Shown here piece by piece: positions 1 to 19,392 of a DNA stretch of 19,392 nt. This DNA comes from a virus. The DNA lies in the IMG/VR virus record IMGVR_UViG_3300045988_148937, positions 1 through 19,392 of that record. One strand, 5' to 3'. A model generated the notes under the pieces. That model was not told where the DNA came from. It worked only from the letters and a program-made list of their open reading frames with translations, and did no database searches. Within the stretch, counting starts at the first letter, position 1. The number at the start of each line of letters is the position of its first letter. Position numbers and translations under genes: made by a program.

Positions 1-3
1 AAA

Positions 4-32
4 TTGTGTACCGCTTTCGCACGTGATAAGAT
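4..32 (+). promoter_or_regulatory. Candidate sigma70-type promoter inside the ITR, firing inward: -35 TTGTGT (4-9), 17-nt spacer, extended -10 TGaTAAGAT (24-32). An identical copy lies on the - strand at 19361..19389
   Basis: Hexamer spacing and the TGn extended -10 were read from sequence. No other obvious promoter sits upstream of either terminal gene. Confidence 0.3.
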
Positions 33-44
33 GTGATCGCAGTT

Positions 45-63
45 GGGGGCGAGGGAAGCCCCC
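45..63. other. GC hairpin GGGGGC-N7-GCCCCC inside the ITR (mirrored at 19330..19348). It would sit at the 5' end of a transcript from the ITR promoter
   Basis: Perfect 6-bp G/C stem seen in sequence. Confidence 0.4.
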
Positions 64-86
64 CGGATTGGAAGGTAGGCAAGGGT

Positions 87-437
87 ATGGAAACAACTAG
101 CGGAAAGATACCAAAATATGAAGTGCAGCGATTGTGCACGCTGCACAACGATCTGGTCATGCTTGAATCGCTTATAGCGCTGTTCATTTGCACGACGTTA
201 GACGCGGAGTACGCCGAATGCGATTGTGTGTATGTTGATGAACTTGGTGGGGATTGCGATGCACTTGGGAGATGGGGTTATTGCGACCCGTGCAAGGTAG
301 AGCGGGTTATGATGTTGGTGTTCGATATTTTCAGGATGTGCGACATAAGCGTTACCCAATCTATGGTGGAGGATATCGTCACCCGCGTATACAACAGCGT
401 TTACATCAACGGCTTAGGAGTAAATCATGGAGAATGA
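87..437 (+). CDS. Hypothetical Cys-rich small protein (CxC..C..CxxC, possible zinc ribbon). First gene inside the left ITR
   Basis: ATG at 87 lies 11 nt after GGAAGG (70-75, inside the ITR). The ORF track begins at GTG 33 inside the ITR, which seems less likely. Stop overlaps the next start (ATGGAGAATGA). Confidence 0.5.
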   Translation: METTSGKIPKYEVQRLCTLHNDLVMLESLIALFICTTLDAEYAECDCVYVDELGGDCDALGRWGYCDPCKVERVMMLVFDIFRMCDISVTQSMVEDIVTRVYNSVYINGLGVNHGE

Positions 438-918
438 GAACGGTTTTGAATCGTACAGGTTTAAGTCGCAGCAGATGCTCGATAGGGCATTCGGTTCGAA
501 CTATCTTCGTTATTGCGAGTTTGATGAAGCGACGGGGGGCGAATGCCCTGGTGCTGATTGCAACGCTTGCAAAGAACGTTTTGTAAAATCGGTTATAGAG
601 CAGATTGATACAGATGTTTTCAGCGAATTGGTCAATTACGAAATTAACGGCAGGAACGTCTTTTCTTCTCAGCATGAGATAAACCGCCTTGAAAATGAAA
701 ATCGCCAACTACGGTTGCGTATCACCGATTTGCGCCACGAGAACGAACGCATTAGAGAAAGTCCACCGGTGCAGCAAGCGCTGAAAGCTAGGGAACGCGG
801 CATGTTCGATGCACTTGCCGAGGTAGAGGACGCAATAGACCGAATCCGCTGCGGTAACGGTATACACCCAGAACTAGCTGAACACATGGAGAAATATGGA
901 TACCCGAACTATCGTTAG
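427..918 (+). CDS. Hypothetical early protein: N-terminal C-x9-C-x4-C-x2-C cluster plus a leucine-zipper-like coiled coil (RLENENRQLRLRITDLRHENERIRE). Possibly DNA-binding
   Basis: AGGAG 8 nt upstream of the start; 163-aa ORF. Confidence 0.6.
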   Translation: MENENGFESYRFKSQQMLDRAFGSNYLRYCEFDEATGGECPGADCNACKERFVKSVIEQIDTDVFSELVNYEINGRNVFSSQHEINRLENENRQLRLRITDLRHENERIRESPPVQQALKARERGMFDALAEVEDAIDRIRCGNGIHPELAEHMEKYGYPNYR

Positions 919-927
919 GAGCTACTG

Positions 928-1137
928 ATGAACACCTTCGATAAGGCAAACGTTGTCGATTACGTGAAATACCTGCGGGAGAACTGCCCGCATGCCGATG
1001 TCTATGCTCAGCAGATCGGAAAATCTTCGAGCTACGTTATCCGCGTCGACGGTTTCACGATTTTCGATAGCAGCGAGCTGCACGCTTTCTTGAGCGGGTA
1101 CAAGTCAGGCTATGCCAAGGGAAGGGCTTACCGATGA
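928..1137 (+). CDS. Hypothetical early protein (69 aa)
   Basis: AGGAGC RBS at 915-920; stop overlaps the next start (ATGA). Confidence 0.55.
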   Translation: MNTFDKANVVDYVKYLRENCPHADVYAQQIGKSSSYVIRVDGFTIFDSSELHAFLSGYKSGYAKGRAYR

Positions 1138-1358
1138 AAATAGAAGTGGAAGTTTCAGAGTACTTGAAGATGGCTTTACTGCTTGAGCGTCACGCCAATT
1201 TGCATGTGGCCATGAAGAACGTTGCATCCGACAGTGAAATGGACGGTTGGCACAAAGGGCGCGAGCTGACGCGTTTAGTCGATGGTTTTTCTGGCGAGAT
1301 AAGCGGTGAGCTTAAGTCGGTCATGGGGTGGTTGGATGAAGCTCAAGAAACTGCATAA
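1134..1358 (+). CDS. Hypothetical early protein (74 aa)
   Basis: ATGA start/stop coupling with the upstream gene. Confidence 0.55.
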   Translation: MKIEVEVSEYLKMALLLERHANLHVAMKNVASDSEMDGWHKGRELTRLVDGFSGEISGELKSVMGWLDEAQETA

Positions 1359-1512
1359 GCTGCTCGTGGACGATTACCTCATAACCGACCTGGACAACGG
1401 GTACACTCATCTGTCCACGGTCGATTTGAAAGAAGAGCTGGACAAGGAAGTTGTGAACATTTGCGCTTTCTACGACCAAGTTCTCGTAAAGGTTTGCGCG
1501 GATATGCGTTAG
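1336..1512 (+). CDS. Hypothetical small protein (58 aa from ATG 1336; ORF track starts at GTG 1306)
   Basis: Open frame continuing the early operon. Start uncertain. Confidence 0.35.
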   Translation: MKLKKLHKLLVDDYLITDLDNGYTHLSTVDLKEELDKEVVNICAFYDQVLVKVCADMR

Positions 1513-1541
1513 AATAGTGGCACCAAGAAAGGAGGTGAGAA

Positions 1542-1769
1542 ATGATTAGGAGAAAACTTACGTTCACAACCTGCGATGTAATAACCCCTGCGGGCGTTAC
1601 GTTAGGCAAATGCGAGCATATAGGGAAGATTTCTCCTGCAAGGCTCGCAAAAGTAGCCCGAAGGCGTTACAAGTATCAGCTCGCGACGATCACTAACTAC
1701 AGTACCCGCGAGGAAACCTACGAGATGGACGAGGAAACGTTCATCGAGCATGCTGAAAAAGTCAAATAA
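1542..1769 (+). CDS. Hypothetical early protein (75 aa), basic
   Basis: Excellent RBS AAAGGAGGTGAGAA upstream of the ATG. Confidence 0.6.
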   Translation: MIRRKLTFTTCDVITPAGVTLGKCEHIGKISPARLAKVARRRYKYQLATITNYSTREETYEMDEETFIEHAEKVK

Positions 1770-1789: not shown

Positions 1790-2269
1790 ATGGAAGAAGC
1801 AATGAACGCTGTAGAGACCAACGAGATCGCGGTATTCCCCGCTGACAACGGAATCGCCAACTCTTGCGAAGGCTTCGCGCAGGGCATTCTGCGCAAGGTC
1901 AACGAGGAAGGTTATTATTCCACGTTCGATGTTTCAACAACAGCTGGCCGCAAGGCGCTCTACCGTGCGACCAACGCAAGCTCGCTTCTGCGAGATTTCA
2001 TGGAAACGCCGTTGGAGCTGAAGGACATCACCTTCGCGCCGTGCGAGATCTCCAACGACGATGGGGACACCGTGGCCATGTTGGGCGTGTACCTCACCGA
2101 TACCGACGGCAACACGTACAGTTCAACCTCTACGGGCGTGCTCAAATCGGCGATGCGCATCATCTCGCAGCTTGGCGAGCCTAGCACTTGGGACGAACCG
2201 CTGTCCGTCGTGTGCAAGGAGACCAACACCGCGAAGGGGCGTCGCTACAAGTTCCTCGACGTTGAGTAA
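1790..2269 (+). CDS. Hypothetical early protein (159 aa). Its position just before TP/DNAP would suit a replication accessory protein (SSB/DBP-like), by synteny only
   Basis: GGAAGGTAAA 9 nt upstream of the ATG; followed by an intrinsic terminator. Confidence 0.6.
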   Translation: MEEAMNAVETNEIAVFPADNGIANSCEGFAQGILRKVNEEGYYSTFDVSTTAGRKALYRATNASSLLRDFMETPLELKDITFAPCEISNDDGDTVAMLGVYLTDTDGNTYSSTSTGVLKSAMRIISQLGEPSTWDEPLSVVCKETNTAKGRRYKFLDVE

Positions 2270-2378: not shown

Positions 2379-3584
2379 ATGGCGAGAAAGAAACGTACGG
2401 AACTGGACAAGGAGATTTCACGCGCCCAGAAAAACGCCCGTAACAAATTATACCGCATTCGAAAGAACGGCGCAATCAACACCGACGAGTTCGACCCTCG
2501 CGTGTCCCCGCAGGAGCTTAAGGCTATGAACGGCTCGCAGAAGAAGGCGTATCTGCGCAAGCTGAAGCTTTTCAACAAGCGCTCGAACAAAATCGTCGTG
2601 CAGAAGGGAAACGGCATCGCCGTTCCTGAAACGCTGCTCAAGCAGTACCGCCAAGCGGAGCTGGAGGTCAACGCCGCTCGAATCCTCAGGCGCGAGCAGA
2701 TAGAGGAAAGCGTCAAAACAGCCGCCCAGAAGGACATCGAGAAGATAAGGGAAGTCGTCAACACCGAGACTGCGCGCAAGGAACGGGCGGAGAAGCAAGG
2801 CAAGCCGTACAAGCCGCTTGAGAAGTCCGTGAGGGCTATGCGCGGCATGCCCGTCGATTGGCAGCGCCTGGACATCGATTACATGGTCACTGCAAGCGCG
2901 TACTACGATCCCGTCTTCAAGCGCCCCGTGCCAGGCGAGCGCAACCGATTCCAAGACATCGTGCCTATATGGATGCAGGAAGAGTTCCCTTCGGTCGAAT
3001 CGGTAGAGGTGCAGACCAGGAAGGCGAAGGAAGCAAAGAAGCGAATCAAGGTCGCCAGGAAGCGCTACCCTCAGTACCGCGCCGCTCTTGTAGAGAAGGC
3101 CATGTTCTCAGGCTACCCCGAGCTTGCGGAAGCGATCAGGGCGCTCACGTACGCCCAGCTTGATTATCTTCACTATTACACGGACTTCGACGCGTGGGGT
3201 TCGTTCTTCTCGTCTGGAAGGGCGTATGAACGGGGAGAGCAGGCGATGTTCGAGGAGGAACGCGACCAGACAGACCAGGCAGCAGAGCTTATGATGCGTG
3301 AGATATTGAAGGCTAGGCGAATCCGCCCAGGTCAGTCGGGGATATCGAACGTGACCTATGACATGGCGTACCGTGGCGTTATGGGGCGCGAGGCAGCGTA
3401 CGACCCCGACGGCGTGTCGGTGCAGCGCTCTGTGGCGTCAGTCGGCCCGTACAGCAGGACGGAGAGCACGTTCGGGCAGCATATCTTCGATTACAAGGCG
3501 GGCAAGGCAGGCGTTGCCATGAGCGAGCACCGTTTGCAGTCCGTTTACTACGAGATGCTCAGACAGGCGCGAGGAAGCCTATGA
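2379..3584 (+). CDS. Putative terminal protein (401 aa): basic N-terminus 'MARKKRTELDKEISRAQKNARNK', translationally coupled to DNAP
   Basis: Lies directly upstream of, and overlaps (ATGA), a protein-primed family-B DNAP, as in phi29, Cp-1 and PRD1. The N-terminus resembles phi29 TP 'MARSPRIRIK..AEYARLVKNTKAK'. The genome has ITRs. Confidence 0.6.
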   Translation: MARKKRTELDKEISRAQKNARNKLYRIRKNGAINTDEFDPRVSPQELKAMNGSQKKAYLRKLKLFNKRSNKIVVQKGNGIAVPETLLKQYRQAELEVNAARILRREQIEESVKTAAQKDIEKIREVVNTETARKERAEKQGKPYKPLEKSVRAMRGMPVDWQRLDIDYMVTASAYYDPVFKRPVPGERNRFQDIVPIWMQEEFPSVESVEVQTRKAKEAKKRIKVARKRYPQYRAALVEKAMFSGYPELAEAIRALTYAQLDYLHYYTDFDAWGSFFSSGRAYERGEQAMFEEERDQTDQAAELMMREILKARRIRPGQSGISNVTYDMAYRGVMGREAAYDPDGVSVQRSVASVGPYSRTESTFGQHIFDYKAGKAGVAMSEHRLQSVYYEMLRQARGSL

Positions 3585-5272
3585 TAGAGTACGCGAGCGA
3601 CTTCGAGACGACCACCGATGCGAACGATTGCCGCGTATGGGCGTGGGGCTGCGCGGAGGTCGGAGCCGAACCTGAAGACAGCTATGTTTACGGCAACGAT
3701 TTCGCCGGTTGGCTGTCCCACGTCATGGAAAACCCTGGGCGGTACTGGTTCCACAACCTCGGGTTCGATTCGAGGTTCGTTATGTGGAACCTTTTGCATA
3801 TGGGCTTCACGTGGGTGCCTAAGAAGCCGAAAGAAGGAGAGTTTTCGAGCGTAATAGACAACATGGGCAAGATCTACGCTTTGGAGATAGGAAACGCAAA
3901 CGGCAGGCTTCAGCTAGCCGACAGCTACAAGAAGTTCCCCATGAGCCTTGCGAGCGTTGCGCGTGCCTACGACTTGCCGATGAGCAAGGGGGAGCTGGAC
4001 TACGATGCTTACCGAGAAGTCGGGCACGAGCTTACCGAAGAGGAGAAAGATTACCTATCGCGCGACGTGCTGATACTCGCGCGGGCGATGCACAAGCGCC
4101 TTCAGGTGGGAACCAAGCTCACCACAGGGGCTGACTGCCTCGCCACCTACCAGGACATAATAGGCGACGTCAAATGGAAGATATGGTTTCCTCACCTCAA
4201 CCCGAAGCTCGACGGAGAGATACGCCAGGCGTACCGTGGCGGCTACGTGTACTGCAATCCGATTCACCAAGGCCAAGTAGTTGGCGAGGGGATCGCCTTG
4301 GACGTTAACTCGCTCTACCCGTACGTCATGCGCACGGCTCTCTTGCCGTGGGGCACGCCCAAGAGGTTCAAGGGCAGGCCGCGCGAAAGCGAGGAGTACC
4401 CGCTATGGGTGTGCTCGGTGCGCTTCGATGCTGCGATAAAACCAGGCAAGCTTCCCTGCATACAGATGAAGAACAACATGTTCTACGGTGACCGCGAGTA
4501 CATACGCGAGACGGTAGAGCCTATCGAGCTTTCCGTGTCTTCGGTAGACTGGAAGCTCATCTGCGACATGTACGAGGTAACGGTGTACGAGTGGGGCGGC
4601 GGGTACGCGTTCCATGCTTCACACGGCATGTTCGACGATTACATCGATCACTGGGTGCAAGAGAAGATCGTGGCAAGCAAGGATGGCAACCAGGCGCGGC
4701 GGCAGAACGCGAAGCTAGCCCTCAACAACCTCTACGGAAAGTTCGGCCAGAAGGTCGACGTGCAGGGCAAGGTGCCTTTTTTGGACTCAGAGGAGGTGTT
4801 GCGCTTCATCGACGGCGACGAGGACATGCGCGAGCCTGTCTACATCCCAGGCGCGGTGTTCATCACGGCGTGGGCACGCGACAAGACGATACGCACAGCT
4901 TGCGAGTTCGGCGACCGTTACCTTTACAGCGACACCGATTCAATCAAGGCGCTCGGGGCGGACATCCCAGAGGACGTGCACGTGGACGATTACGAACTGG
5001 GGGCATGGGCGTTGGAGGGAAGGTTCGACAAGGGCGTGTTCTTACGTGCCAAAACGTACGCGACGGTAACCGACGGCGTTCCGACCTACGTTTGCGCGGG
5101 CATGCCGAACAGCCTTAAGGATGTTATGATGTTCGAGGACTTCCGATTAGGGTTCACCACGCTGGGCACCGACAATCCCGACTACGCGAACCAAGATAAC
5201 TGGAAGCTCGTCCCTAAGAACGTTCGCGGCGGTTGCGTGCTCGTGCCGCTACCGTTTACAATTCACGGGTGA
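3581..5272 (+). CDS. Protein-primed family-B DNA polymerase (phi29-type)
   Basis: N-terminus 'DFETTTDANDCRVWAWG' matches phi29 'DFETTTKVEDCRVWAYG' (Exo I). Exo II 'HNLGFDSRF', Exo III 'YLSRDVLIL', motif A 'DVNSLYPY', motif B 'KLALNNLYGKFG', motif C 'YSDTDS' and KxY 'KTYA' are all present. Confidence 0.95.
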   Translation: MIEYASDFETTTDANDCRVWAWGCAEVGAEPEDSYVYGNDFAGWLSHVMENPGRYWFHNLGFDSRFVMWNLLHMGFTWVPKKPKEGEFSSVIDNMGKIYALEIGNANGRLQLADSYKKFPMSLASVARAYDLPMSKGELDYDAYREVGHELTEEEKDYLSRDVLILARAMHKRLQVGTKLTTGADCLATYQDIIGDVKWKIWFPHLNPKLDGEIRQAYRGGYVYCNPIHQGQVVGEGIALDVNSLYPYVMRTALLPWGTPKRFKGRPRESEEYPLWVCSVRFDAAIKPGKLPCIQMKNNMFYGDREYIRETVEPIELSVSSVDWKLICDMYEVTVYEWGGGYAFHASHGMFDDYIDHWVQEKIVASKDGNQARRQNAKLALNNLYGKFGQKVDVQGKVPFLDSEEVLRFIDGDEDMREPVYIPGAVFITAWARDKTIRTACEFGDRYLYSDTDSIKALGADIPEDVHVDDYELGAWALEGRFDKGVFLRAKTYATVTDGVPTYVCAGMPNSLKDVMMFEDFRLGFTTLGTDNPDYANQDNWKLVPKNVRGGCVLVPLPFTIHG

Positions 5273-5286: not shown

Positions 5287-5670
5287 ATGGAAGTTCTCCA
5301 AGGTTTCGACTGGTGGGCGGTAACGATCGCTCTCGTCTTCATCGTGTTCGACTTCGTGTCGGGAATCGTCAAGGCGGCGTACAACAAGAGCATCTCGTCC
5401 TCCGTCATGCGCCAGGGGCTTTACCACAAGGTGGCAGAGTTCATGGTCATCGTGCTCGCGGTGTTCGTCGATGCGGCGTGCCAGCATCTTGAGCTAGGGT
5501 TCGACGCCCCGATACTCTCGGTAGCGTGCGCCTACATCGTGCTCATGGAAGTGGCAAGCATCATCGAGAACATCGGCGAGATGAACCCCGATCTGACAAA
5601 CAGCCCTGTTTTCGGCATCTTTCAGAAAGGAGAGAGCAATGACGCTTTACGGAATCGACGTGAGCAGTAA
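5287..5670 (+). CDS. Holin (3 predicted TM helices; resembles the phi29 gp14 / TcdE holin family)
   Basis: Strong RBS GAAGGAGGTG. Hydrophobic segments WWAVTIALVFIVFDFVSGIV, VAEFMVIVLAVFVDAA and ILSVACAYIVLMEVASIIENI. Immediately precedes and overlaps the endolysin gene. Confidence 0.7.
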   Translation: MEVLQGFDWWAVTIALVFIVFDFVSGIVKAAYNKSISSSVMRQGLYHKVAEFMVIVLAVFVDAACQHLELGFDAPILSVACAYIVLMEVASIIENIGEMNPDLTNSPVFGIFQKGESNDALRNRREQ

Positions 5671-6505
5671 CCAGCCCGCTGGAATCTGCTCGATGGTCGA
5701 TTACGATTTCGCCATCGTAAAGGCAACGGGAAACCCTCGCGGGTACTCGCAGTGGTACGTGAACCCTTACTATGAGCAACAGGTTCAAGAAGCCTACGAC
5801 AGGTGCGGGTGCGTCGGGCTTTATCATTTCACCTACGGAGGAGACGCGGCGGAGGAAGCCGATTTCTTCTGCGATACCGTTTCGGCGTGGGTCGGGTCGG
5901 CAATGCTCGTCATCGACTACGAGGGAGACGGGGCGCTTTCCCGAGGGCGCGAATGGCTGCGCGCGCTCATCGGGCGGGTTCGTGACAACACCGGGGTAAA
6001 TCCCGTGGTGTACGCATCGAGCAGCGTCATCGAAGAGCAGGAGCTGGAAGCGCTCTGCTCCGAAGAGGACTGCTCGCTTTGGAGCGCCAACTACTGGCGG
6101 GGATACGATACCGTCTACGGTTACGACACCGACGGCATGCGGCAGGACGTGCCAAGCTCGGCCTTGTGGCAGTTCACCAGCCAGGGCAGGCTCGATGGAT
6201 ACGACGGCTACCTAGACCTCGACGTGTTCTACGGAGACGCAGGCACGTGGGGCAAGTATTGCAGAGCGAACAAGGAAGAGGAAGAGGAAGACATGCTGAC
6301 GGAGCATCAGGACAAGCTTTTGGCGACCATCTACGAACAGCAGGTGGGAACGTACGACCCGACAGGGCGCGGCATCGAGCTTAACGACCATGACCATATC
6401 AAATGGATTGGCAAATATGTCAACGACATTCAAGCCAAGCTAGAAGAGCAAGACGCCAAAATCGACAAGATTCTCGCCAAAATCAAATGCGGGTGCGCAG
6501 ATTAA
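5639..6505 (+). CDS. Endolysin, GH25 muramidase domain (~aa 1-200), plus an atypical C-terminal region with a poly-Glu linker and coiled coil
   Basis: GH25 hallmarks 'YGIDVSSNQ', 'DFAIVKATGN', 'LYHFTYG', 'WQFTSQG..DLDVFYG'. AAGGAG RBS. Confidence 0.85.
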   Translation: MTLYGIDVSSNQPAGICSMVDYDFAIVKATGNPRGYSQWYVNPYYEQQVQEAYDRCGCVGLYHFTYGGDAAEEADFFCDTVSAWVGSAMLVIDYEGDGALSRGREWLRALIGRVRDNTGVNPVVYASSSVIEEQELEALCSEEDCSLWSANYWRGYDTVYGYDTDGMRQDVPSSALWQFTSQGRLDGYDGYLDLDVFYGDAGTWGKYCRANKEEEEEDMLTEHQDKLLATIYEQQVGTYDPTGRGIELNDHDHIKWIGKYVNDIQAKLEEQDAKIDKILAKIKCGCAD

Positions 6506-6776
6506 CGGCGCTCATCGACATACTGTCCAAGGAATCCCGCTGCGCTTCGGCCAGCGGGATTCCTTTTTCTTGCAATAGGCCGCAAACGGTGTCGGAAACG
6601 GTTGCGACGGCGGAGCGCAGGCTGCACTTCGCGAACCGCTCGCGCGGCATCTCCGCCGAAACGCCGTAGAGAGTCACCCTCACCTCGCACTCGCGGTCGC
6701 GGCTGTCGGCGCAAACATCGGCTGTTACCGCCCAAGCGCCGTCCGCCTTACCGCCTTCTAGGACAATTGTCTCCAT
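6483..6776 (-). CDS. Hypothetical 97-aa protein 'METIVLEGGKADGAWAV...'. It is the only antisense gene in the central genome. Candidate early/late transcription regulator by position (analogous to phi29 gene 4/6)
   Basis: ATG preceded by GGAAGG (10-nt spacer) and a perfect TATAAT (complement of 6809-6814). High GC3 codon usage. Caveat: the ORF runs through the opposite-strand terminator hairpin and overlaps the endolysin 3' end by 23 nt. Confidence 0.35.
   Translation of the reverse strand: METIVLEGGKADGAWAVTADVCADSRDRECEVRVTLYGVSAEMPRERFAKCSLRSAVATVSDTVCGLLQEKGIPLAEAQRDSLDSMSMSAVNLRTRI
6531..6568 (+). terminator. Strong intrinsic terminator: 12-bp perfect stem GGAATCCCGCTG / CAGCGGGATTCC around a C(UUCG)G tetraloop, then TTTTT
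   Basis: Read directly from sequence, 25 nt after the endolysin stop. Confidence 0.8.
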
Positions 6777-6781
6777 AGCAC

Positions 6782-12574: not shown

Positions 12575-13104
12575 TGGCAGTATGGAAAGACGCGTGCAAC
12601 GCGCTCGATTTCGCTTATCGAGGGTACCAATACCCGCTCCCGCCGTCATGGAAGTACGCGGTCAGGCTCGAAGACCAGATCCAATGGCTTTTGCAGGCGA
12701 TACTCAAGCTTGCGGACGAATCGCTCGGCGATGAAGACCTCGACAGGCTTTACCGCTCGCTTAAGGAGTACATCGACGACAAGGCGGGGAAGCTTCAGAA
12801 GGAGCTTAACGAGCTGTCGGCAGGCGGCGGGTACTCCGTTTCGCCGACCGACGGCTTCAAGCGCTCTGGCACGGTTACGGCTCGCCAGCTGTTCGACGCG
12901 TCGCGCCCGTTCGGCATGACGTACGCAGGGCTTGCCGCCGCCGTCAAGACGTATGACGAGGTGAAGGCGAAGGGAAAGACGTACGATCAGGTGGACTTCT
13001 TCGCCACGCTCTGGTTCGGAGACGGCTCCATGACCGCGCACCGAACGCCCGCAGCGGACATTTCGGAGTCGTGGTTCGGAGGAGGGCGAAATGGCACTGC
13101 CTAA
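12571..13104 (+). CDS. Hypothetical structural protein (177 aa; ATG at 12574 is also possible)
   Basis: GGAGG RBS. Embedded in the structural operon between the collar-like and fibre genes. Confidence 0.6.
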   Translation: MMAVWKDACNALDFAYRGYQYPLPPSWKYAVRLEDQIQWLLQAILKLADESLGDEDLDRLYRSLKEYIDDKAGKLQKELNELSAGGGYSVSPTDGFKRSGTVTARQLFDASRPFGMTYAGLAAAVKTYDEVKAKGKTYDQVDFFATLWFGDGSMTAHRTPAADISESWFGGGRNGTA

Positions 13105-14284
13105 ATTCGCACAAGAAAGGCGAATAGACCTCGTGACCGCGGTCAACGAGCTAAGCGGTGCCGTCGATGAGGCGCTGGCGGGCGGCGGAGGCGGGGGAGG
13201 TTCGTACACCCTGCCCGTAGCGGGGGACTCTACCCTCGGAGGAGTAAAGGGGCAGCGCGTCGCGGAGAAGGACGGGAACGGGCGCATACTCAACGTAACG
13301 CCCGACGGCACGGCGTTCATCGACGCAGCCGACGCGCTCAATCCCGGCGTCGTTCGCTCCAAGGAGGGCAACGCCTTCGCCGACACGGACGCCAACGTGG
13401 CGGTCAACGCGCACGGGTACATGAAGTGCGACGCGGGCAAGGCGTACGTGGACGCGCAGGTAGCGGGAGTGGAAGCGCACCTTGAGGCGTTCGAAGCGGA
13501 AGCGGTCACGCAGGCCGAGGGAACCGCCCCTCTCACGCTCGCCGTATCGCCCGTGGCTGGAAGCGGAAGCAAGCTCACTGCAAGTCTGTCTTACAGCGAT
13601 TTTTTCAGGATTGACCGTAACAACAGGCTAAATTACGACGGTGATGCGTTTAATGCTGCCGCATTCCAATCAACTAAAGGTTGCTACCTGCGTGACGATG
13701 ACGGGGCAATAATCTCACAAAATGGCGATACTTCAGGTTTCGCAATCGACCCGAAGGGCGGAATCCTGGCAGTCGACAGCCGAGAAGATGGAATAGGCAT
13801 CACCTTCAAGCTCAACGTCGGCAACGGCCTGGCGCTCAACCCTCAAACGGGAATGCTGGAACTGCCCATCGACACGACGGCGGGACTCGGGTACGGCTCG
13901 AACGGGCTAGAGGTGGAGGTGGACGGTACCACGATCGTGCACAACCTTAACGGGCAGCTTAGCGTCGTGGACGCAGACGCGAAAGCGGTAACCGTTTCCT
14001 CGCAGCCCTCAGGCAGCCCCGTGTCGGCGCTGGCGCACGGCAAGACGGTGTGCGTGTCGTTCAACAGCGTCGCGGTGAGCGGGAACGCCAAAACGAAAGT
14101 GGGGAACCTCGGAATATACTACGCCCCCAGGACTGCGAAGACAGGCACCGTCGCCGCCATTGGGCCTAACGGCGTGATTACCGCATACTGCCAGGTAGAC
14201 GCAAACGGAAACATCTATATAAACCCCGTTACAGCATCGGGTGCAAACCTATCGTGGACAGGCACGCTAACCTATTTGATCTAA
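13091..14284 (+). CDS. Tail fibre / receptor-binding protein 1 (397 aa): Gly-run, the fibre motif 'YTLPVAGDSTLGGVKG', and a C-terminal domain shared with the next gene
   Basis: The 'Y-x-LP-x-A...GGVK' motif is typical of phage tail-fibre N-termini. C-terminus 'NGNIYINPVTASGANLSWTGTLTYLI' is paralogous to 14295..14960. Confidence 0.75.
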   Translation: MALPKFAQERRIDLVTAVNELSGAVDEALAGGGGGGGSYTLPVAGDSTLGGVKGQRVAEKDGNGRILNVTPDGTAFIDAADALNPGVVRSKEGNAFADTDANVAVNAHGYMKCDAGKAYVDAQVAGVEAHLEAFEAEAVTQAEGTAPLTLAVSPVAGSGSKLTASLSYSDFFRIDRNNRLNYDGDAFNAAAFQSTKGCYLRDDDGAIISQNGDTSGFAIDPKGGILAVDSREDGIGITFKLNVGNGLALNPQTGMLELPIDTTAGLGYGSNGLEVEVDGTTIVHNLNGQLSVVDADAKAVTVSSQPSGSPVSALAHGKTVCVSFNSVAVSGNAKTKVGNLGIYYAPRTAKTGTVAAIGPNGVITAYCQVDANGNIYINPVTASGANLSWTGTLTYLI

Positions 14285-14294
14285 GGAGACCAAC

Positions 14295-14960
14295 ATGTCA
14301 ACGCCTAACTACAATCTTCCAACCATCAGCGGAACCGAGGTAGCCGACTTCGTGGGCGACCTCAACGCGCTCGCCAACGCGACCGACTCCGCCTTGAAGG
14401 CAGTTGAGAACGCTGCATCGACCTACGTCCTTCCAACGGCAACCGCCTACGTGAAGGGCGGCGTTAAAATCGGAAAGGGCATCGAAGCCGACAGCGATGG
14501 TACTATTTCCGTCAAACTTGCCGCAGGAGAGGTGGGGACCGACGCGCTCGCGACTGGCGCGGTCACCGAGGATAAGCTTTCTCAGACAGTCGCCGCTTCC
14601 CTAGCAAACGGAAATCAGGCTCTTACGCAGGCGAACGCAGCTCTCAACGCGTTCAACGCCAAGCCGACACCCGCAGGAACGTTCTCTTCGGGGTCTGGAA
14701 CCATCGAAGCGTGGGGCAGAATCGCCATCGTGCACGCCGAACAGCTTGCCGTGCCCACAGGAACGAAAACGTTGGTGGGAACCGTCGGAGTCGGGTACCG
14801 GCCGAACTCCGAGACTACCGTCCCCGTGTCAGCGTTTGACGGAAGCGGGAACATCGTAATCGCGTTCCTCAAGGTGGAGACGGGCGGGAACATCTACATC
14901 AACCCTGGCGGCAAGACTGGTTTGAACTGGACAGGCACCGCCATCTACCTACTGGGATAG
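14295..14960 (+). CDS. Tail fibre / receptor-binding protein 2 (221 aa), paralog of the preceding gene
   Basis: 'YVLPTATAYVKGGVKIG' motif. C-terminus 'GGNIYINPGGKTGLNWTGTAIYLLG' is similar to the fibre 1 C-terminus. AAGGAG RBS. Confidence 0.75.
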   Translation: MSTPNYNLPTISGTEVADFVGDLNALANATDSALKAVENAASTYVLPTATAYVKGGVKIGKGIEADSDGTISVKLAAGEVGTDALATGAVTEDKLSQTVAASLANGNQALTQANAALNAFNAKPTPAGTFSSGSGTIEAWGRIAIVHAEQLAVPTGTKTLVGTVGVGYRPNSETTVPVSAFDGSGNIVIAFLKVETGGNIYINPGGKTGLNWTGTAIYLLG

Positions 14961-14966: not shown

Positions 14967-16253
14967 ATGCCGCCGCTCGACAACACAGTGCTCTATGCTA
15001 TGTACGTCATCGGTAAGGTTGAGTCAGATTGGGACTGGACTGCCACCTACCCCGCCGACCCCATCACGATCGGCATGTTGCAGGAATACGGGCAGAACGC
15101 CTCAGACCTGCTGAAGATGTGCCGCGAAGGCGACCCGACGGGTTGGGCAGCCTTCGCGGCGTCCGCGTCCTCGCTCGCAAGCGACGTGGACGCCCACGGG
15201 GACTCGTGGAGCTGGTGGGAGTCGCGCTACCTGTCGCAAGACGAGGTAGAAGCGTGGCAGACCATGGCCGCGCGAAGCGAGAACCACGCTATACAGCAAA
15301 GCAAATGGGACAACGACGCGAGGGCTTACGTGAGCAGGCTGGAAACCGACGGCTGGTCGCAGGAGCGTCCCCAGACCCTCGTGTACGCTATGTGCATCTA
15401 CCACCAATCGCCGCAGGCATACGGGCAGGTCACACGTTCGTGCGGGGGAAGCGCGACGCTCGACACGCTGCACGCGACGACGCTCAACAACTGGATAGGG
15501 CAGAGCTACTCGAACCGCTACAACACTGCTTACAGCATGCTCAAGGACTGGGACGGCAACAGCGCGCCGCCCGACTTCGGGCAGGTTGCCGACGCGCCGT
15601 CCACTGGCGACACGGGCACGGTAACGCAGCCCGACTCGCCCGTTCAGCGCGTTGAGATGCGCAACGGGCAGATACTGGTGTGGGGGCTTGAAGGGTACCC
15701 GAACGGGCTTCTGTGCGGGTACAGCGCCCCGAACATCTGGATTCCCATCACCAACAAGGCGGGAGCCGTCAACCCTGGCACAGCGACGGGCGGCGGCGAT
15801 TCCAAGACGGGCAGCGCCATAGTTGAATACGCGAAGTCCAAACTGGGCGAGTGGTACTACAGCCAAGGCTCGGGGCGGCTAGACCCCGAATCGAGCGGGT
15901 ACACCGATTGCAGCGGGTTCGTCTACTGGTGCTACCATCACGTCGCGGGCATCGAGCTTGGCAAGTGGACGGGAGAGCTTGCCACCGACGGCGAGGAGGT
16001 TTTCAGGAGCACCGACACGGGTGCCGTCCCGTGGGACTCCATGCAGGCGGGCGACGTGATTCTGTCGACGAAATACCCGTCCTCGCTCTGGGGATTCGGA
16101 ACCGCAGGCGGCGGGCAGCACGCGCAGATCTACACTGGAACGCCAGGCGAGGTCGTGGACGTGGCAAGCACTCCGTGCCCCACGGTGCGCACGGGCGATG
16201 GAATCTGGGTGTACCCGTCGATAGCGGGTTACATGGTGAGACGGATGCTTTAG
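14967..16253 (+). CDS. Tail-associated peptidoglycan hydrolase: N-terminal phi29 gp13-like glycosidase-type domain plus C-terminal NlpC/P60 cysteine endopeptidase
   Basis: C-terminal 'YTDCSGFVYWCYHH' with the downstream 'HAQIYTG' is the NlpC/P60 Cys-His signature. N-terminal 'GKVESDW...ITIGMLQEYGQNA' resembles phi29 gp13 'GNMQSES...SLGFGLVQWT'. It occupies the phi29 gene-13 position before the ATPase. Confidence 0.8.
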   Translation: MPPLDNTVLYAMYVIGKVESDWDWTATYPADPITIGMLQEYGQNASDLLKMCREGDPTGWAAFAASASSLASDVDAHGDSWSWWESRYLSQDEVEAWQTMAARSENHAIQQSKWDNDARAYVSRLETDGWSQERPQTLVYAMCIYHQSPQAYGQVTRSCGGSATLDTLHATTLNNWIGQSYSNRYNTAYSMLKDWDGNSAPPDFGQVADAPSTGDTGTVTQPDSPVQRVEMRNGQILVWGLEGYPNGLLCGYSAPNIWIPITNKAGAVNPGTATGGGDSKTGSAIVEYAKSKLGEWYYSQGSGRLDPESSGYTDCSGFVYWCYHHVAGIELGKWTGELATDGEEVFRSTDTGAVPWDSMQAGDVILSTKYPSSLWGFGTAGGGQHAQIYTGTPGEVVDVASTPCPTVRTGDGIWVYPSIAGYMVRRML

Positions 16254-16261: not shown

Positions 16262-17305
16262 GTGGAAAGAGAATACTACCCCGTTGCCAGAACGTGTTCC
16301 TACGGCGCTCCGCTAACCCTCGTCATCAGCATGCGAAGCTACGGCAAGTCCTTCGGGTTCACGTTGCGCGGCCTTAAGCGCTGGGCGAAGACGGGGGCGC
16401 AGTTCTGCTGGGTGAGACGTTACGACGACGAGACCGCCAAGACCGCGCCGAAGCTGCTTGACGACGTGCTCGCGAACGGGTACATGGAAGGATACGAGTT
16501 CCGCTACATGGGCAGGCGATGGGAAGGCCGCAAGCACGGAGACGACGAGCGTCCCTGGTCTACCGTGTGCCATTGCCTCACGCTCTCGCAGGGGCAGAGT
16601 TACAAGGGCGTCGCGTTCCCCAAGGTCGATACCGTCGTGTTCGACGAGTTCATCCGCGAGGTGAAGACCCCGCCAGGGTACCTGCGCGACGAGACGGGCG
16701 TTTTCCTCAATCTGTTGAAATCGGTGTTCAGAGACCGTCCGAACGTGCACGCCTTCGCGCTTGCCAACGCGTGCGACCTCACTGCGCCGCTGCTCGCGTT
16801 CGCCGGGGTCAGAAGCGAGGAGCAGATCGCAACGCCTTCGGGCTACAGCTGGCACAACCGCAAAAGCGTCCTCGTGCATTACGCTCACGACGCCAAGTTC
16901 GCGGCGCAGGAAGCCGAGACGGTTGTAGGCCGCCTCGTGGCGGGCACGCCGTACGCCGCCGTCATGATGGGAAACCAGTTCGCCAACGGCGGCGACAACC
17001 TCGTGGGCGCGAAGCCTGCGCGAGCACGCTACCGCTACGGCTTCGTGTACGGCGGCGAAAGGTTCGGGGTATGGCTCGACGACATCGCGGGCATATACTA
17101 CGTTAACCGAAAGATTCCCGACAACGGCGGAATGCTGTTCACGCTTCAGGCGGGAGACATGGCCGTAAACGTTCTCATGGTGGAGCGAGCCGCCCCGTTC
17201 GCCAAGGGAATAATGCGGCTGTTCGGGTTCGGGCGCGTGCTGTTCGACAACGCGGCCACTCGCGAGAAGTTCGTAAAGATGCTGGGACTGGTAGGGTTGA
17301 GATAG
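16262..17305 (+). CDS. DNA packaging ATPase, phi29 gp16-like (GTG start with AGGAGG RBS; 347 aa)
   Basis: 'VISMRSYGKSFGF' (Walker A) aligns to phi29 'VIGARGIGKSYAM'. 'FCWVRRYDDE' aligns to 'FIYVRRYKPE'. 'DTVVFDEFIRE' (Walker B) aligns to 'STIVFDEFIRE'. The ORF-track start at 15851 overlaps the hydrolase and is rejected. Confidence 0.9.
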   Translation: MEREYYPVARTCSYGAPLTLVISMRSYGKSFGFTLRGLKRWAKTGAQFCWVRRYDDETAKTAPKLLDDVLANGYMEGYEFRYMGRRWEGRKHGDDERPWSTVCHCLTLSQGQSYKGVAFPKVDTVVFDEFIREVKTPPGYLRDETGVFLNLLKSVFRDRPNVHAFALANACDLTAPLLAFAGVRSEEQIATPSGYSWHNRKSVLVHYAHDAKFAAQEAETVVGRLVAGTPYAAVMMGNQFANGGDNLVGAKPARARYRYGFVYGGERFGVWLDDIAGIYYVNRKIPDNGGMLFTLQAGDMAVNVLMVERAAPFAKGIMRLFGFGRVLFDNAATREKFVKMLGLVGLR

Positions 17306-17323
17306 CGAACGTTTGTTCGCTAT
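17302..17323 (+). other. 9-bp hairpin ATAGCGAAC-gttt-GTTCGCTAT overlapping the ATPase stop codon, with no U-tract
   Basis: Seen directly. Possible 3' stabiliser or weak terminator of the late operon. Confidence 0.4.
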
Positions 17324-17354
17324 ATAACGCTGCCGCCCAAAGCGTCCCCGTCCT

Positions 17355-17455
17355 TTTCGTTTTCGAGAACTTCGAAAAACCGTTTTCGATTTTGCGGGCG
17401 AAAACGAAACGTTCGCAAACCATCGCAGCCGAGCGCGACCGAAAACCGCGAAAAT
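17355..17455. repeat. Array of short inverted and direct repeats built on CGAAAAC / GTTTTCG: TTTTCGA-gaact-TCGAAAA; CGTTTTCG-N10-CGAAAACG; further CGAAAAC copies at about 17398, 17439 and 17449
   Basis: Motif copies and palindromes read from sequence, in a non-coding region between convergent operons. Confidence 0.5.
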
Positions 17456-17573
17456 TTAGGTTCAAGTGTTCGGAAAGCGCAATACGGTGCATCGATAGCG
17501 CACCGTATCACCCTCACGGTATGAGGCGCTATAAGGCTCTGAGAGCGTTTCTAAAGGGGCTGTTTTTTCGCGG

Positions 17574-17731
17574 TGGTATAGTTATAGCCTTTAACGCTTG
17601 CAATGCCTTAAAATCGATTATACGGCGCGCCTTGTGCGCATGAAAGCAGCCCGAAACGACGGAGCTGCAACGGCTGAAAGTAAACCGTGGCTAACTACCA
17701 TGCAAAAAGAAAGCCCGCAAGTTGCGGGCTT
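17574..17731 (+). ncRNA. Candidate small structured RNA (possible pRNA-like packaging RNA). Starts at an extended -10 TGgTATAGT (17574-17582) and ends at the 17702-17731 hairpin. An upstream nested hairpin ATAGCGC-ACCGT-N9-ACGGT-N5-GCGCTAT (17495-17535) may belong to the same or an antisense RNA
   Basis: No credible ORF in this stretch (ORF-track entries 17392..17643 and 17320..17517 overlap each other). Multiple stems. Location adjacent to the gp16-like ATPase. Purely structural inference. Confidence 0.2.
17702..17731 (-). terminator. Intrinsic terminator for the right-end leftward operon: hairpin AAGCCCGC-aagtt-GCGGGCTT followed on the - strand by TTCTTTTTG
   Basis: Stem and T-run read from the reverse complement, 8 nt past the stop of 17739..18002. 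Confidence 0.65.
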
Positions 17732-17738
17732 GAAATGC

Positions 17739-18002
17739 CTAGTGCTGAGGCTTAATCTCCGGCGCTAGCTCGATAGCCCTCCCGAAGGTTTTAACCTGAG
17801 CGAAAAGCTCCCGAGCGGTGCGCCCGCTGAAACGTACGTCATCGGGCCAGCCGTATGCGTCGTGCCACGCTATGACGGCGGTTCGGCTGTCAGAGGACAG
17901 CGAGGCGCGGGGATCGTGTGCGCCGATCGCATCGAGCGCCCGGCATGCGCGCGAAAGCTCGTTTTCAATGCGCTTTCGCGTGGTTCGTGGTGATGTCTTC
18001 AC
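17739..18002 (-). CDS. Hypothetical right-end protein (87 aa, GTG start)
   Basis: ORF with AGGTGA 7 nt upstream. Last gene of the leftward right-end operon. Confidence 0.45.
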   Translation of the reverse strand: MKTSPRTTRKRIENELSRACRALDAIGAHDPRASLSSDSRTAVIAWHDAYGWPDDVRFSGRTARELFAQVKTFGRAIELAPEIKPQH

Positions 18003-18008
18003 GTCGCA

Positions 18009-18500
18009 TCACCTGCACTTATAAGGCGCAACGGCTGCTAAACCGATCTCCGCCTCGTCGGTCTTGCGCACGAGGCGGAAAGCGCCGACGCGCCCGCCTT
18101 CACGGTGTATGATACACGCGTCGAAAGCCTTGGCAAGCTTGCAAAGCAGTTCAATGTAACTAGGGTCGAAAGCGTAGCGCGCAGGCGCTTTAAAGCCCAT
18201 TAAGACGCCTTTCACCATCGCCGTTGAAACGGGCAAAGCGGTACGCCCTGCGCTGTCTGTAGGCGCGTCGAACACGATCGTATCACCCGCAAGAGTGCGC
18301 GCGGGGTCGGCTTCACACCATGCCGGAGCATCGCCGCAATCGAGATAAACGGCGGCGATGATGAACTGGTTAGTTGCAATAAGCCCGCCAAAACTGGGAT
18401 CGTACCAGGGGCGTGAAAACTTTCCCGCCGGCCACTCTTTCCCGCGCTTCTCGCTGCACTTTGCAAGCGCCTTATACTGCTTTCCGCTGATAGTCTGCAT
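18009..18500 (-). CDS. Hypothetical right-end protein (163 aa from 'MQTISGKQYK')
   Basis: GAGAGGTAGAAAG RBS directly before this ATG. The ORF-track start at 18515 would place the RBS inside the coding sequence. Confidence 0.6.
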   Translation of the reverse strand: MQTISGKQYKALAKCSEKRGKEWPAGKFSRPWYDPSFGGLIATNQFIIAAVYLDCGDAPAWCEADPARTLAGDTIVFDAPTDSAGRTALPVSTAMVKGVLMGFKAPARYAFDPSYIELLCKLAKAFDACIIHREGGRVGAFRLVRKTDEAEIGLAAVAPYKCR

Positions 18501-18504
18501 CTTT

Positions 18505-18654
18505 CTACCTCTCATACATCACACATAACGCCGTAAACGCCACTGCCGCCGCCAGACCCGCCCAAAGCGGGGCGAAAAAAAGCGCGAAGGCTGTCACGAT
18601 GCCCGCAAGCCACAATATAGCGTTTTCCCCGCCGCGCACGTTAATCGTCCTCAT
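18505..18654 (-). CDS. Small membrane protein (~49 aa) with one long hydrophobic helix 'ILWLAGIVTAFALFFAPLWAGLAAAVAFTALCV'. Start uncertain
   Basis: The hydrophobic C-terminal half is convincing. The N-terminal part of the ORF-track version overlaps the upstream gene in another frame. ATG overlaps the upstream stop (ATGAGGACGATTAA). Confidence 0.35.
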   Translation of the reverse strand: MRTINVRGGENAILWLAGIVTAFALFFAPLWAGLAAAVAFTALCVMYER

Positions 18655-18862
18655 AATCCGAAAAATCGAATCGCATGGCCTCATACGCTTCAGCGGTGTA
18701 GTACCGCGCTGCATCTGCGAAGCTTTCGAAGCACTTTTCATCGTAGCCCCAAGGACAGCAGACCGCTACCATATAGCATTCTTCGGCCTCGTATAAGGCG
18801 ACATCGTATGTGATGCTGCGATCGTATTGCGAAGAATTTTCGCAAGTCTTGAGCAACTTCAT
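18641..18862 (-). CDS. Small highly acidic, aromatic- and Cys-rich protein (73 aa, about 17 D/E against 6 K/R; ends DYEDD). Candidate DNA-mimic or anti-defence protein
   Basis: GGGAGCG RBS 5 nt before ATG 'MKLLKT'. The upstream gene stop (TGA) lies inside the RBS region, so the genes are tightly packed. Confidence 0.55.
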   Translation of the reverse strand: MKLLKTCENSSQYDRSITYDVALYEAEECYMVAVCCPWGYDEKCFESFADAARYYTAEAYEAMRFDFSDYEDD

Positions 18863-18873
18863 TCGCTCCCGCC

Positions 18874-19053
18874 TCACTTTTCAACCCAAGCATTCCAAGA
18901 CCAGATACCGCAAACACCATCCACCAACGCCGCAAAAGCCTCTGCACTGGCTTTCGATTCAAAAAAGGCGTTATACCAGTCTTGTCCGTTGTTGTAGTAA
19001 ACCCTGTAAACCCGCGTTTTAGTGTAGTTGATTCCGTTTATCGTGGTTTCCAT
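18874..19053 (-). CDS. Hypothetical small protein (59 aa from 'METTINGINYTK')
   Basis: GGAGGCG RBS 6 nt upstream. The upstream gene stop TAA lies 2 nt before this ATG. Confidence 0.5.
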   Translation of the reverse strand: METTINGINYTKTRVYRVYYNNGQDWYNAFFESKASAEAFAALVDGVCGIWSWNAWVEK

Positions 19054-19055
19054 GG

Positions 19056-19307
19056 TTACGCCTCCACAATTGCATTTGCCTGTTGAAGCGTAAAAAAACA
19101 TTCCATAAAGCTTTCAAGCTGATACACGCAATCACGAGGAGAGCCGCAAGCCACAATCTTCTTGGGGATCCATTGACCGCTCGTGTAGTGCTCAATGTAA
19201 ACGTTGTGAGCGATTCCGCCACGATCATGAACGCGCACGTTGAAGCGTTTCATATAGGCATTCACGTAATTGATTTTGCCTTCCAAGACTTTCGCAGTGT
19301 AGCGCAT
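19056..19307 (-). CDS. Hypothetical right-terminal protein (84 aa from 'MRYTAKVLEGK'). First gene inside the right ITR
   Basis: ATG lies 11 nt after the ITR-borne GGAAGG, exactly mirroring the left-end gene 87..437. The ORF-track start at 19370 lies inside the ITR. Confidence 0.55.
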   Translation of the reverse strand: MRYTAKVLEGKINYVNAYMKRFNVRVHDRGGIAHNVYIEHYTSGQWIPKKIVACGSPRDCVYQLESFMECFFTLQQANAIVEA

Positions 19308-19313
19308 GAGGCA

Positions 19314-19392
19314 CCTACCTTCCAATCCGGGGGGCTTCCCTCGCCCCCAACTGCGATCACATCTTATCACGTGCGAAAGCGGTACACAATTT
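19314..19392. repeat. Right inverted terminal repeat, 79 bp
   Basis: Reverse complement equals 1..79 exactly. Confidence 0.95.

Follow-up and report, generated by a model that had tools for sequence, protein, structure and literature searches.

A conserved structured RNA with the layout of packaging RNA at the head of the late operon in an uncultured phi29-like phage lineage

In Bacillus phage phi29, the packaging ATPase gp16 needs the prohead or packaging RNA (pRNA) to dock on the prohead (PMC5066667). This RNA comprises a domain I of 117 nt, in which helix A closes a three-way junction, followed by a linker and a hairpin constituting domain II, and the 5' bulge of its C/E arm (right-hand loop) pairs with the D loop (left-hand loop) of another molecule, giving rise to a ring on the prohead (PMC5066667). 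Known pRNAs share only ~12% sequence identity while the structure is kept (PMC5066667), and reviews report them exclusively for phi29 and its relatives among the Bacillus phages (PMC5066667, PMC11476376). Use of an RNA by further phages with a gp16-type ATPase is a standing question. In a 2024 survey, over 2000 sequences related to phi29 cover GC contents of 22.8–65.9%, and their hosts comprise, among others, Actinomyces, Arthrobacter, Bifidobacterium, Curtobacterium, Eggerthella, Glutamicibacter and Microbacterium (PMC11476376). Here we analysed a stretch of viral DNA of 19,392 nt (IMG/VR virus record IMGVR_UViG_3300045988_148937, positions 1 to 19,392; ‘the window’ denotes this whole stretch) and report a previously undescribed structured RNA at 6817–6978, which the first-pass annotation of the window had overlooked. 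The support of this RNA by covariation makes the above question directly testable. It is this RNA that lifts the window above the ordinary and matters more than the genome, which represents one more uncultured lineage of a well-surveyed group and whose ‘completeness’ is off by ~230 bp or more.

The RNA occupies the non-coding stretch between an open reading frame (ORF) at 6483–6776 and the scaffold gene, which starts at 7000. The locus is composed as follows:

6782–6810, plus strand: promoter-like site found by consensus scan, with an extended −10 element TGcGATAAT (6802–6810); ends 6 nt before the RNA
6817–6933, plus strand: RNA domain I, 117 nt; long closing helix, three-way junction, bulged arm and D hairpin
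6944–6978, plus strand: RNA domain II, a GC-rich hairpin ending 21 nt upstream of the scaffold start codon; compensatory stem changes across relatives

Comparison with related contigs revealed that positions 6816–6934 share 93% nucleotide identity with relatives in which the polymerase protein is only ~80% identical, and that the adjoining ORF has no nucleotide similarity in the same relatives. RNAalifold, applied to six sequences, predicted a fold with compensatory changes in which a long helix closes a three-way junction and an arm with a bulge on its 5' side and a terminal hairpin stands next to another hairpin; 10 nt further downstream, a separate hairpin follows. In domain I, the 5' bulge reads GACAGCG (6858–6864) and the loop of the D hairpin ACUGCUG (6893–6899). 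The hairpin of domain II is possibly a leaky terminator. A −10-like hexamer, mostly TG-extended, lies 5–10 nt upstream of helix P1 in every lineage, and we infer a promoter upstream of the RNA at 6782–6810.

To describe the distribution of the RNA, we used covariance models. The model R1, derived from four near-identical sequences, was too narrow, as it found close relatives only, and was replaced by R2 and R3. R2 was built from seven sequences, including three lineages at 54–58% polymerase identity that had been recognised by eye, and recovered seven copies on which it had not been trained. R3, built from 13 sequences, reached lineages (L097, L177, L017, L019 and L187; L numbers designate the contigs and genomes compared with the window) with 45–52% polymerase identity and 42–59% GC, partly only with filters off. 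Every model match was full-length, located on the plus strand and confined to the gap that immediately precedes the scaffold gene, and the RNA-bearing clade as a whole ranges from 42 to 60% GC. In one contig with 54% polymerase identity (L178; ERZ27317815 k141_882353, RNA region 6499–6851), the structural module is oriented opposite to the early genes, as in phi29. The RNA is nonetheless found directly upstream of the scaffold gene in this contig, indicating that it travels with the late module and not with the early genes.

In the alignment of the 13 sequences, 93.4% of the cells were paired, compared to 71.7% after shuffling (none of 500 shuffles reached the observed value), and sliding the partners by 1–3 columns reduced the paired fraction to 34–49%. 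Double, that is compensatory, substitutions occurred in 27 of the 41 pairs and were distributed across all six helices. Two points weaken the case for the RNA: the pairs were counted on an alignment fitted to the model, so that the percentage paired is inflated, and the three weakest R3 matches have E-values of 0.4–1.4. However, fitting to a model does not produce so many distinct types of compensatory pairs. A coding explanation, i.e. a 56-aa ORF at 6819–6989, was ruled out by 1-nt insertions and deletions and by the paired compensatory substitutions in close relatives. A blastn search with the RNA against GenBank phages returned no match. That a conserved structured RNA exists at 6817–6978 can be stated with high confidence.

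Side-by-side comparison of this RNA with phi29 pRNA yields the following correspondence of segments:

closing helix, 5' strand: window RNA nt 1–28; phi29 pRNA 1–28
arm with 5' bulge: window RNA 31–70; phi29 pRNA 30–71
D hairpin: window RNA 71–89; phi29 pRNA 75–91
closing helix, 3' strand: window RNA 90–117; phi29 pRNA 92–117
second domain: a hairpin in the window RNA; a hairpin in phi29 pRNA

The layout of pRNA, a domain I of ~117–120 nt followed by a hairpin as domain II, was accordingly found with agreeing segment sizes and with support from covariation. Both RNAs, the one in the window and the pRNA family of Rfam (RF00044), have a long bulged helix leading to a three-way junction, a 5'-bulged arm, an adjacent hairpin and a second hairpin downstream, and in both, bulge and hairpin loop are complementary to each other while their sequences change from lineage to lineage. 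In the ten lineages compared here, the complementary stretches of bulge and D loop are:

window group: CAGC / GCUG
L175: CGCAA / UUGCG
L176: CGCC / GGCG
L178: CGCG / CGCG
L183: GCGA / UCGC
L177: GACC / GGUC
L097: UUGCGA / UCGCAA
L017: UGCA / UGCA
L019: GACA / UGUC
L016: GCC / GGC

Cognate bulges and D loops form 4.2 Watson-Crick pairs on average as compared to 2.5 for non-cognate combinations; the loop boundaries were set by hand and were identical in both comparisons. None of 100,000 permutations of the partners reached the observed total of 42 pairs, and shuffling within the loops gave 24.6 ± 2.3. Moreover, the phage encodes both a gp16-type ATPase and a gp10-type connector. By analogy with phi29, we therefore regard the RNA at 6817–6978 as probably, albeit far from certainly, a true pRNA. 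Under this assumption, the promoter with the extended −10 element at ~6802–6810 would start an RNA made up of the 117-nt three-way-junction domain and the second hairpin, copies of which would bind the connector end of the prohead. The bulge (CAGC) of one copy would pair with the D loop (GCUG) of its neighbour to form a ring, the long helix would dock the gp16 ATPase, and read-through of the second hairpin would yield the late mRNA.

Several observations speak against a function as pRNA. Searches of Rfam including the pRNA family gave no match at E ≤ 1 on the window or at E ≤ 10 on 6790–7000; the window RNA is GC-rich and shows neither sequence nor covariance-model similarity to RF00044. Its gene heads the late operon instead of lying near the left end under an early promoter, unlike the phi29 pRNA gene at 147–320. 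The junction linker of the window RNA is a 2-nt UA on the 5' side, whereas pRNA has a U-rich bulge. As a U-run is often missing behind the second hairpin, the RNA may simply be a 5' leader, and the pairing of bulge and D loop could be intramolecular. Finally, GenBank phages gave no match to the RNA, and R3 finds nothing in the cultured phages Av-1, Ayka, BD811P1, BadAztec1 and LE1-1. The differing gene location and the lack of a match to the Rfam pRNA family fit an alternative in which 6817–6978 acts in cis as the 5' leader of the late operon, engaged for example in antitermination or in the control of stability or translation, and in which the loops pair within one molecule. In keeping with such a leader, the RNA is always positioned directly between the promoter and the ribosome binding site of the scaffold gene, and the second hairpin resembles a terminator in some lineages while lacking the U-run in others. 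On the other hand, the arrangement and the lengths of the segments match those of pRNA domain I almost to the nucleotide, and the loops vary freely while staying complementary, which is a signature of pRNA, unlike leaders that bind ligands or proteins through conserved loops. In addition, the phage possesses the type of ATPase that requires pRNA for docking in phi29 (PMC5066667). We consider the leader a possible but rather unlikely explanation.

If the RNA is a pRNA, RNA-dependent packaging would operate in a large and diverse uncultured phi29-like clade (42–60% GC, from metagenomes, some of them of gut origin), well beyond the Bacillus phages. In this case, pRNA would probably be ancestral to the phages with a gp16-type ATPase, and in this clade the pRNA gene would have been relocated to the start of the late operon. 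The RNA bears on whether pRNA is ancestral or a novelty of Bacillus phages. It also adds at least ten natural, GC-rich variants to the three-way-junction/kissing-loop motif that is widely used in RNA nanotechnology.

Gaps in front of scaffold genes were also inspected in cultured phages. In BadAztec1 (L260), the gap between polymerase and scaffold genes (12680–12857, minus strand) gives on folding a ~117-nt domain that comprises a long closing helix and a CAGUAG motif, followed by a GC-rich hairpin; this fold resembles the window RNA, yet it is not detected by R3. Comparable gaps of 140–230 nt are present in BD811P1, Ayka and Av-1. A different region of the window, 17306–17738, was evaluated as pRNA candidate by analogy with the Av-1 annotation and rejected, as it has no nucleotide similarity in relatives and a folding z-score of only −2.8.

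The window in its entirety is best explained, in our view with good confidence, as the near-complete genome of an uncultured phi29-like podophage with protein-primed replication, a linear molecule whose full length would be ~19.6 kb. Pfam matches were counted above the curated cut-offs, and PHROGs and profile comparisons with PDB entries were used in addition. This confirmed the phi29-type polymerase, connector, capsid, tail knob and gp16 ATPase named in the first-pass annotation and added a p6-like DNA-binding protein, a single-stranded DNA-binding protein and a lower collar protein. All genes between 87 and 17305 are on the plus strand except for one small ORF, and the genes at the right end are on the minus strand:

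87–437, 427–918, 928–1137, 1134–1358 and 1336–1512, plus strand: five small left-end early ORFs, called on identical contigs; no Pfam or PHROG assignment
1542–1769, plus strand: p6-like double-stranded DNA-binding protein (phrog_6370, E 2e-6)
1790–2269, plus strand: phi29-type single-stranded DNA-binding protein, SSB (PF17427, E 1.2e-10; phrog_6243, E 1.7e-17)
2379–3584, plus strand: putative terminal protein, 401 aa, by position only
3581–5272, plus strand: protein-primed family-B DNA polymerase, DNA_pol_B_2 (PF03175, E 5e-64)
5287–5670, plus strand: holin of the lysis cassette (PF05105)
5639–6505, plus strand: GH25 endolysin of the lysis cassette (PF01183)
6483–6776, minus strand: small divergent ORF, 97 aa, called on identical contigs; no family match
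7000–7302, plus strand: scaffolding protein, by its position directly upstream of the capsid gene like phi29 gp7
7312–8796, plus strand: major capsid protein, Phi29_MCP, with C-terminal extension (PF25622, E 1.5e-80)
8797–10956, plus strand: gp9-type tail knob, phi29_gp9_C (PF20934; phrog_2248, E 1.8e-82)
10966–12006, plus strand: connector/portal of the gp10 type, Phage_connector (PF05352, E 3.7e-43)
12008–12574, plus strand: lower collar/adaptor of the gp11 type (phrog_3225, phrog_5472)
12574–13104, plus strand: ORF of the structural module, gene call; no family match
13091–14284 and 14295–14960, plus strand: two paralogous fibre-like genes sharing N- and C-terminal domains (39% identity, E 2e-13)
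14967–16253, plus strand: tail-associated cell-wall hydrolase, NlpC/P60, at the gp13 position (PF00877; tail-lysin PHROGs)
16262–17305, plus strand: gp16-type DNA packaging ATPase, Podovirus_Gp16 (PF05894, E 8.7e-41)
17306–17738, no strand assigned: non-coding convergent region with a minus-strand terminator at 17711–17731
18009–18500, 18641–18862, 18874–19053 and 19056–19307, minus strand: right-end early ORFs, called on L012; no family match

The polymerase scores 217 bits against PF03175 (cut-off 25.8) and aligns end to end with phi29 polymerase (1XHX; E 1.6e-103, residues 4–527 against 9–552), and the ATPase matches the structure of phi29 gp16 over its full length (7JQQ; E 9.6e-35). The scaffold protein, which has no family match in Pfam or PHROGs, is 93% identical in L015. 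A tRNA scan of the window found none. From this arrangement, expression would be expected to proceed rightward from the left arm through the small early genes and the genes for the p6-like protein, SSB, putative terminal protein and polymerase to holin and endolysin, and to continue after the RNA with the genes for scaffold, capsid, tail knob, connector, collar, fibres, tail lysin and gp16 ATPase in turn.

As to relatedness, whole-window megablast against 50,697 GenBank phage records gave no match. Among cultured phages, the polymerase reaches at best 41% identity (Curtobacterium phages, Actinomyces phage Av-1, Glutamicibacter phage Voltaire and ‘Rhizobium’ phage RHph_N3_8) and the capsid 37% (Curtobacterium and Arthrobacter phages), so the identity above 70% to a described genus, named beforehand as an outcome that would contradict a distinct lineage, was not reached. 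The International Committee on Taxonomy of Viruses uses ~70% genome identity for the genus. Similarity of this level to Dybvigvirus, Anjalivirus, Badaztecvirus, Salasvirus or other described genera was not observed, the core proteins being at most 41% identical. Closer relatives are metagenomic and form a group at 78–82% polymerase identity with contigs of ~17.5–19.7 kb; a larger uncultured clade at 45–58% polymerase identity falls into more than 25 polymerase clusters (clustering at 70% identity). The proposal of a distinct lineage thus holds, but the kind of phage is one already known.

The same applies to two further claims of the first-pass annotation. The GC content is indeed high, with 58.2% overall and 48–50% in the left arm (left 2 kb), but this is not unusual for the group, given its range of 22.8–65.9% (PMC11476376) and the examples of Av-1 and the Curtobacterium, Arthrobacter and Bifidobacterium phages. 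Likewise, the gene order does differ from phi29 in that the lysis cassette follows the polymerase gene, but left early genes co-directional with the late genes are the published arrangement of Av-1. A lysis cassette that follows the polymerase gene is also present in L006, L016–L019 and L175–L177, down to ~45% polymerase identity, and holin and endolysin genes between polymerase and scaffold genes are the sole layout trait specific to this clade. Taken together, the phage is a new uncultured lineage within an already known phage type, whose layout resembles that of Av-1 except for the relocated lysis cassette.

The resemblance to Av-1 (Dybvigvirus) comprises a small linear genome with long inverted terminal repeats (ITRs; ~227 bp or more in Av-1, starting with TGTGT), rightward left early genes in the order SSB, terminal protein (putative in the window) and polymerase, the subsequent capsid, tail, connector, adaptor and other structural genes and the ATPase gene, and a few leftward ORFs at the right end; Av-1 also ties for the best cultured polymerase match. 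In contrast, there is no nucleotide similarity between the two, the capsid and ATPase are only 32% and 25% identical, respectively, the Av-1 lysis genes follow the ATPase gene instead of the polymerase gene, and the Av-1 terminal protein has no detectable similarity to its putative counterpart in the window. The Av-1 record further annotates a ‘packaging RNA’ elsewhere, at 16295–16402, and our RNA model finds nothing in this genome. With phi29 (Salasmaviridae), the phage shares the protein-primed polymerase, gp16 ATPase, capsid, connector, tail knob, collar, SSB and p6-like proteins, a similar genome size and a leftward early operon at the right end. It differs from phi29 in the ITR (6 bp in phi29 as compared to ~196 bp, see below), in the left early operon, which is antiparallel to the late genes in phi29, and in the lysis genes, which precede gene 16 there; the polymerases are 37% identical, and homologues of gp12 and gp4 were not found in the window. 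The phages of Bifidobacterium (BadAztec1, BD811P1) and Curtobacterium (Ayka, Reje) agree with the window in their core genes and in the succession of SSB, terminal protein (putative in the window), polymerase, scaffold and capsid, include its closest tail-lysin relatives (~35%), and all exhibit a gap of ~180–230 nt upstream of the scaffold gene. They are set apart by polymerase and capsid identities of 29–41% and 27–37%, respectively, by lysis genes that do not follow the polymerase gene, and by the absence of a match to the RNA model.

The best cultured matches of the polymerase, capsid and tail knob are phages of actinobacteria, and the tail lysin matches exclusively phi29-like phages of Bifidobacterium (~35%), Actinomyces and Glutamicibacter. 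On the basis of these similarities, we favour an actinobacterial host with some reservation. The host might alternatively lie outside the actinobacteria, for instance among Bacillota of the animal gut, with GC content and matches to actinophages being only loose indicators. The GC range of the RNA-bearing clade and the uniformly low identities to cultured actinophages would agree with such a host, as would the relatives found in metagenome-assembled genomes (MAGs) labelled Clostridiales, Bacteroidales and others. These labels are however mutually inconsistent, which is more likely the result of mis-binning, and they run counter to the actinobacterial phages that top the lists for polymerase, capsid and tail knob and to the restricted matches of the tail lysin. 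A non-actinobacterial host appears less likely than the actinobacterial host that we favour.

Two other routes to the host were tried and abandoned. Assignment from the MAGs that contain relatives was rejected owing to contradictory labels (Clostridiales, Bacteroidales, Saccharibacteria, Methanobrevibacter and more), pointing to mis-binned phage contigs, and assignment from endolysin matches to phages with known hosts was rejected since these matches are too weak and scattered (30–37%). Phi29-like contigs of 14–18 kb (within L095–L174) are binned in MAGs labelled Bacteroidales, Prevotella, Saccharibacteria, Methanobrevibacter, Vampirovibrio and others, and the same mis-binning has been noted for ‘archaeal’ entries in a 2024 review (PMC11476376). 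The sole environmental clue is that some contigs of relatives at 46% identity are named human gut metagenome.

The window had been described as a complete, ITR-bounded genome. Direct comparison of its ends corroborated the perfect inverted repeat, as 1–79 and 19314–19392 are 100% complementary, while the second-longest inverted repeat of the window measures 34 nt at 71%. The terminal elements are:

1–79, no strand assigned: left ITR, inner 79 nt; at least 117 outer nt are absent from the window, and L004 and L005 reach past position 1
19314–19392, no strand assigned: right ITR, inner 79 nt, cut as the left arm; L012 reaches 48 nt past 19392
4–32, plus strand: putative early promoter in the ITR (TTGTGT, 17-nt spacer, TGaTAAGAT), read from the letters; mirrored at the right end

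Completeness, by contrast, was contradicted by contigs of the same phage (L004, L005 and L012), which were found through the exact polymerase protein on other contigs. Over 15.3 kb, L004 and the window show 99.94% identity, which identifies L004 as the same phage, and L004 starts 117 nt to the left of position 1. L005 starts 48 nt to the left of the same position, and L012 covers the right end and continues for 48 nt beyond 19392. The 48-nt extensions on the left and right are identical inverted copies, demonstrating that the ITR is at least 127 nt long. The 79-nt repeat is thus the inner part of a longer ITR, and the contig was cut symmetrically inside the repeats, so that only the inner 79 bp are present. 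Exact-pattern searches with the window ITR in IMG/VR gave no match. In two relatives from IMG/VR, the repeat is complete on the left as well as on the right, with ~234–239 bp in a contig of 18,951 bp and ~254–257 bp in a contig of 18,696 bp; these ITRs of 235–257 bp at both ends start with (TG)TAGTAAAC. In a third relative, the left repeat is full with ~256 nt and the right one keeps only the inner 58 nt, which represents the same kind of assembler truncation as in the window. Accordingly, the ITR that phi29-like phages carry at the ends of a linear genome of ~15–20 kb is truncated in the window and full in relatives.

L004 begins with GTGTAGTA, and the GTGTAG start motif is common to the contig starts of three relatives. 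Contigs of relatives with 78–82% polymerase identity begin with GTGTAGGA, TGTAGTAA and TAGTAA. The true ends probably begin near GTGTAG, the exact terminus being inferred. From these sequences, we conclude that the ITR of the phage is likely to span ~196 bp (117 + 79) and the full genome ~19.6 kb, the window being short of at least 117 bp per end. A caveat to these lengths is that the outermost 69 nt (GTGTAG...) are supported by one contig at the left end only, and that the last few bases are uncertain.

That the window is nevertheless complete, with the 79-bp repeat as the full ITR and positions 1 and 19392 as the protein-linked ends, is highly improbable. The perfect repeat does sit exactly at both contig ends, and the sequence opens with AAA as in phi29. 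Yet the contigs L004, L005 and L012 of the same phage together continue past both ends with agreeing sequences, the conserved motif that opens the ITRs of relatives lies far outside the homologous position, and an A/T polymorphism at position 2 provides a plausible cause of a symmetric break in the assembly graph. A circular or circularly permuted molecule with the terminal repeat as an assembly artefact, the possibility raised in the first pass itself, can practically be dismissed: symmetric truncation at 79 nt does reveal that the assembler shaped the contig ends, but circular or permuted genomes yield direct and not inverted terminal repeats, the same inverted ends recur in independent assemblies of relatives from several samples and assemblers, and the polymerase is of the protein-primed type.

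Two kinds of sequence variation were noticed within the repeats. Assemblies differ by A/T at window position 2 (L004 position 119), one base inside the window end, and this variant bubble inside the ITR may explain the identical cut on both sides. Within the same sample, the right end in L012 (1–127) and the left end in L005 (1–127) display two differences, C>A and A>G, which fall within the stretch that is perfectly repeated in the window, suggesting that the ITR copies are not always identical or that two strains were mixed. An inward-firing early promoter may be located in each ITR. The consensus scan of the window did not flag the site at 4–32, and the homologous position in the full ITRs of relatives reads TAGACA-17-TGcTATAGT. 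A promoter in each ITR would explain why the arms are identical almost up to the first ribosome binding site, and the right ITR would drive a short leftward early operon.

The ORF at 2379–3584 is placed between the SSB and polymerase genes and overlaps the start of the latter, as in phi29 and Av-1, and on account of this position its product is putatively assigned as terminal protein. Its homologues are restricted to this clade. Pfam, PHROGs, BLASTP against the Av-1 protein and profile comparison with PDB gave no signal for a terminal protein, and a structure search was no more than suggestive.

For the fibre-like pair at 13091–14960, weak matches to tail-fibre PHROGs were obtained. Both proteins contain a YxLPxA...GGVK motif, which is likewise present in the phi29 head fibre, and neighbouring genes in relatives have weak or faint matches to head-fibre Pfam families. 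The pair may therefore encode either head or tail fibres, and the suggested replacement of gp12 by them is unproven. In L004, the larger fibre gene (13209–14294) is frameshifted near its 3' end, giving a protein of 361 aa as compared to 397 aa in the window that is devoid of the C-terminal domain common to the second fibre; this reflects a strain variant or an assembly error.

The ORF at 6483–6776 is the sole minus-strand ORF inside the plus-strand block. It overlaps the 3' end of the endolysin gene by 23 nt, diverges from the RNA promoter and is weakly conserved, with 38% identity over 40 aa to its counterpart in L006. In the convergent region at 17306–17738 (433 nt), CGAAAAC/GTTTTCG recurs several times in both orientations, and a hairpin at 17302–17323 is located directly after the ATPase stop codon. 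Finally, residues 335–494 of the capsid protein constitute a C-terminal extension of ~160 aa past the Phi29_MCP domain, which ends in a low-complexity tail rich in Ala, Ser and Lys and aligns only with Bacillus phage capsid proteins that bear an extra domain as well.

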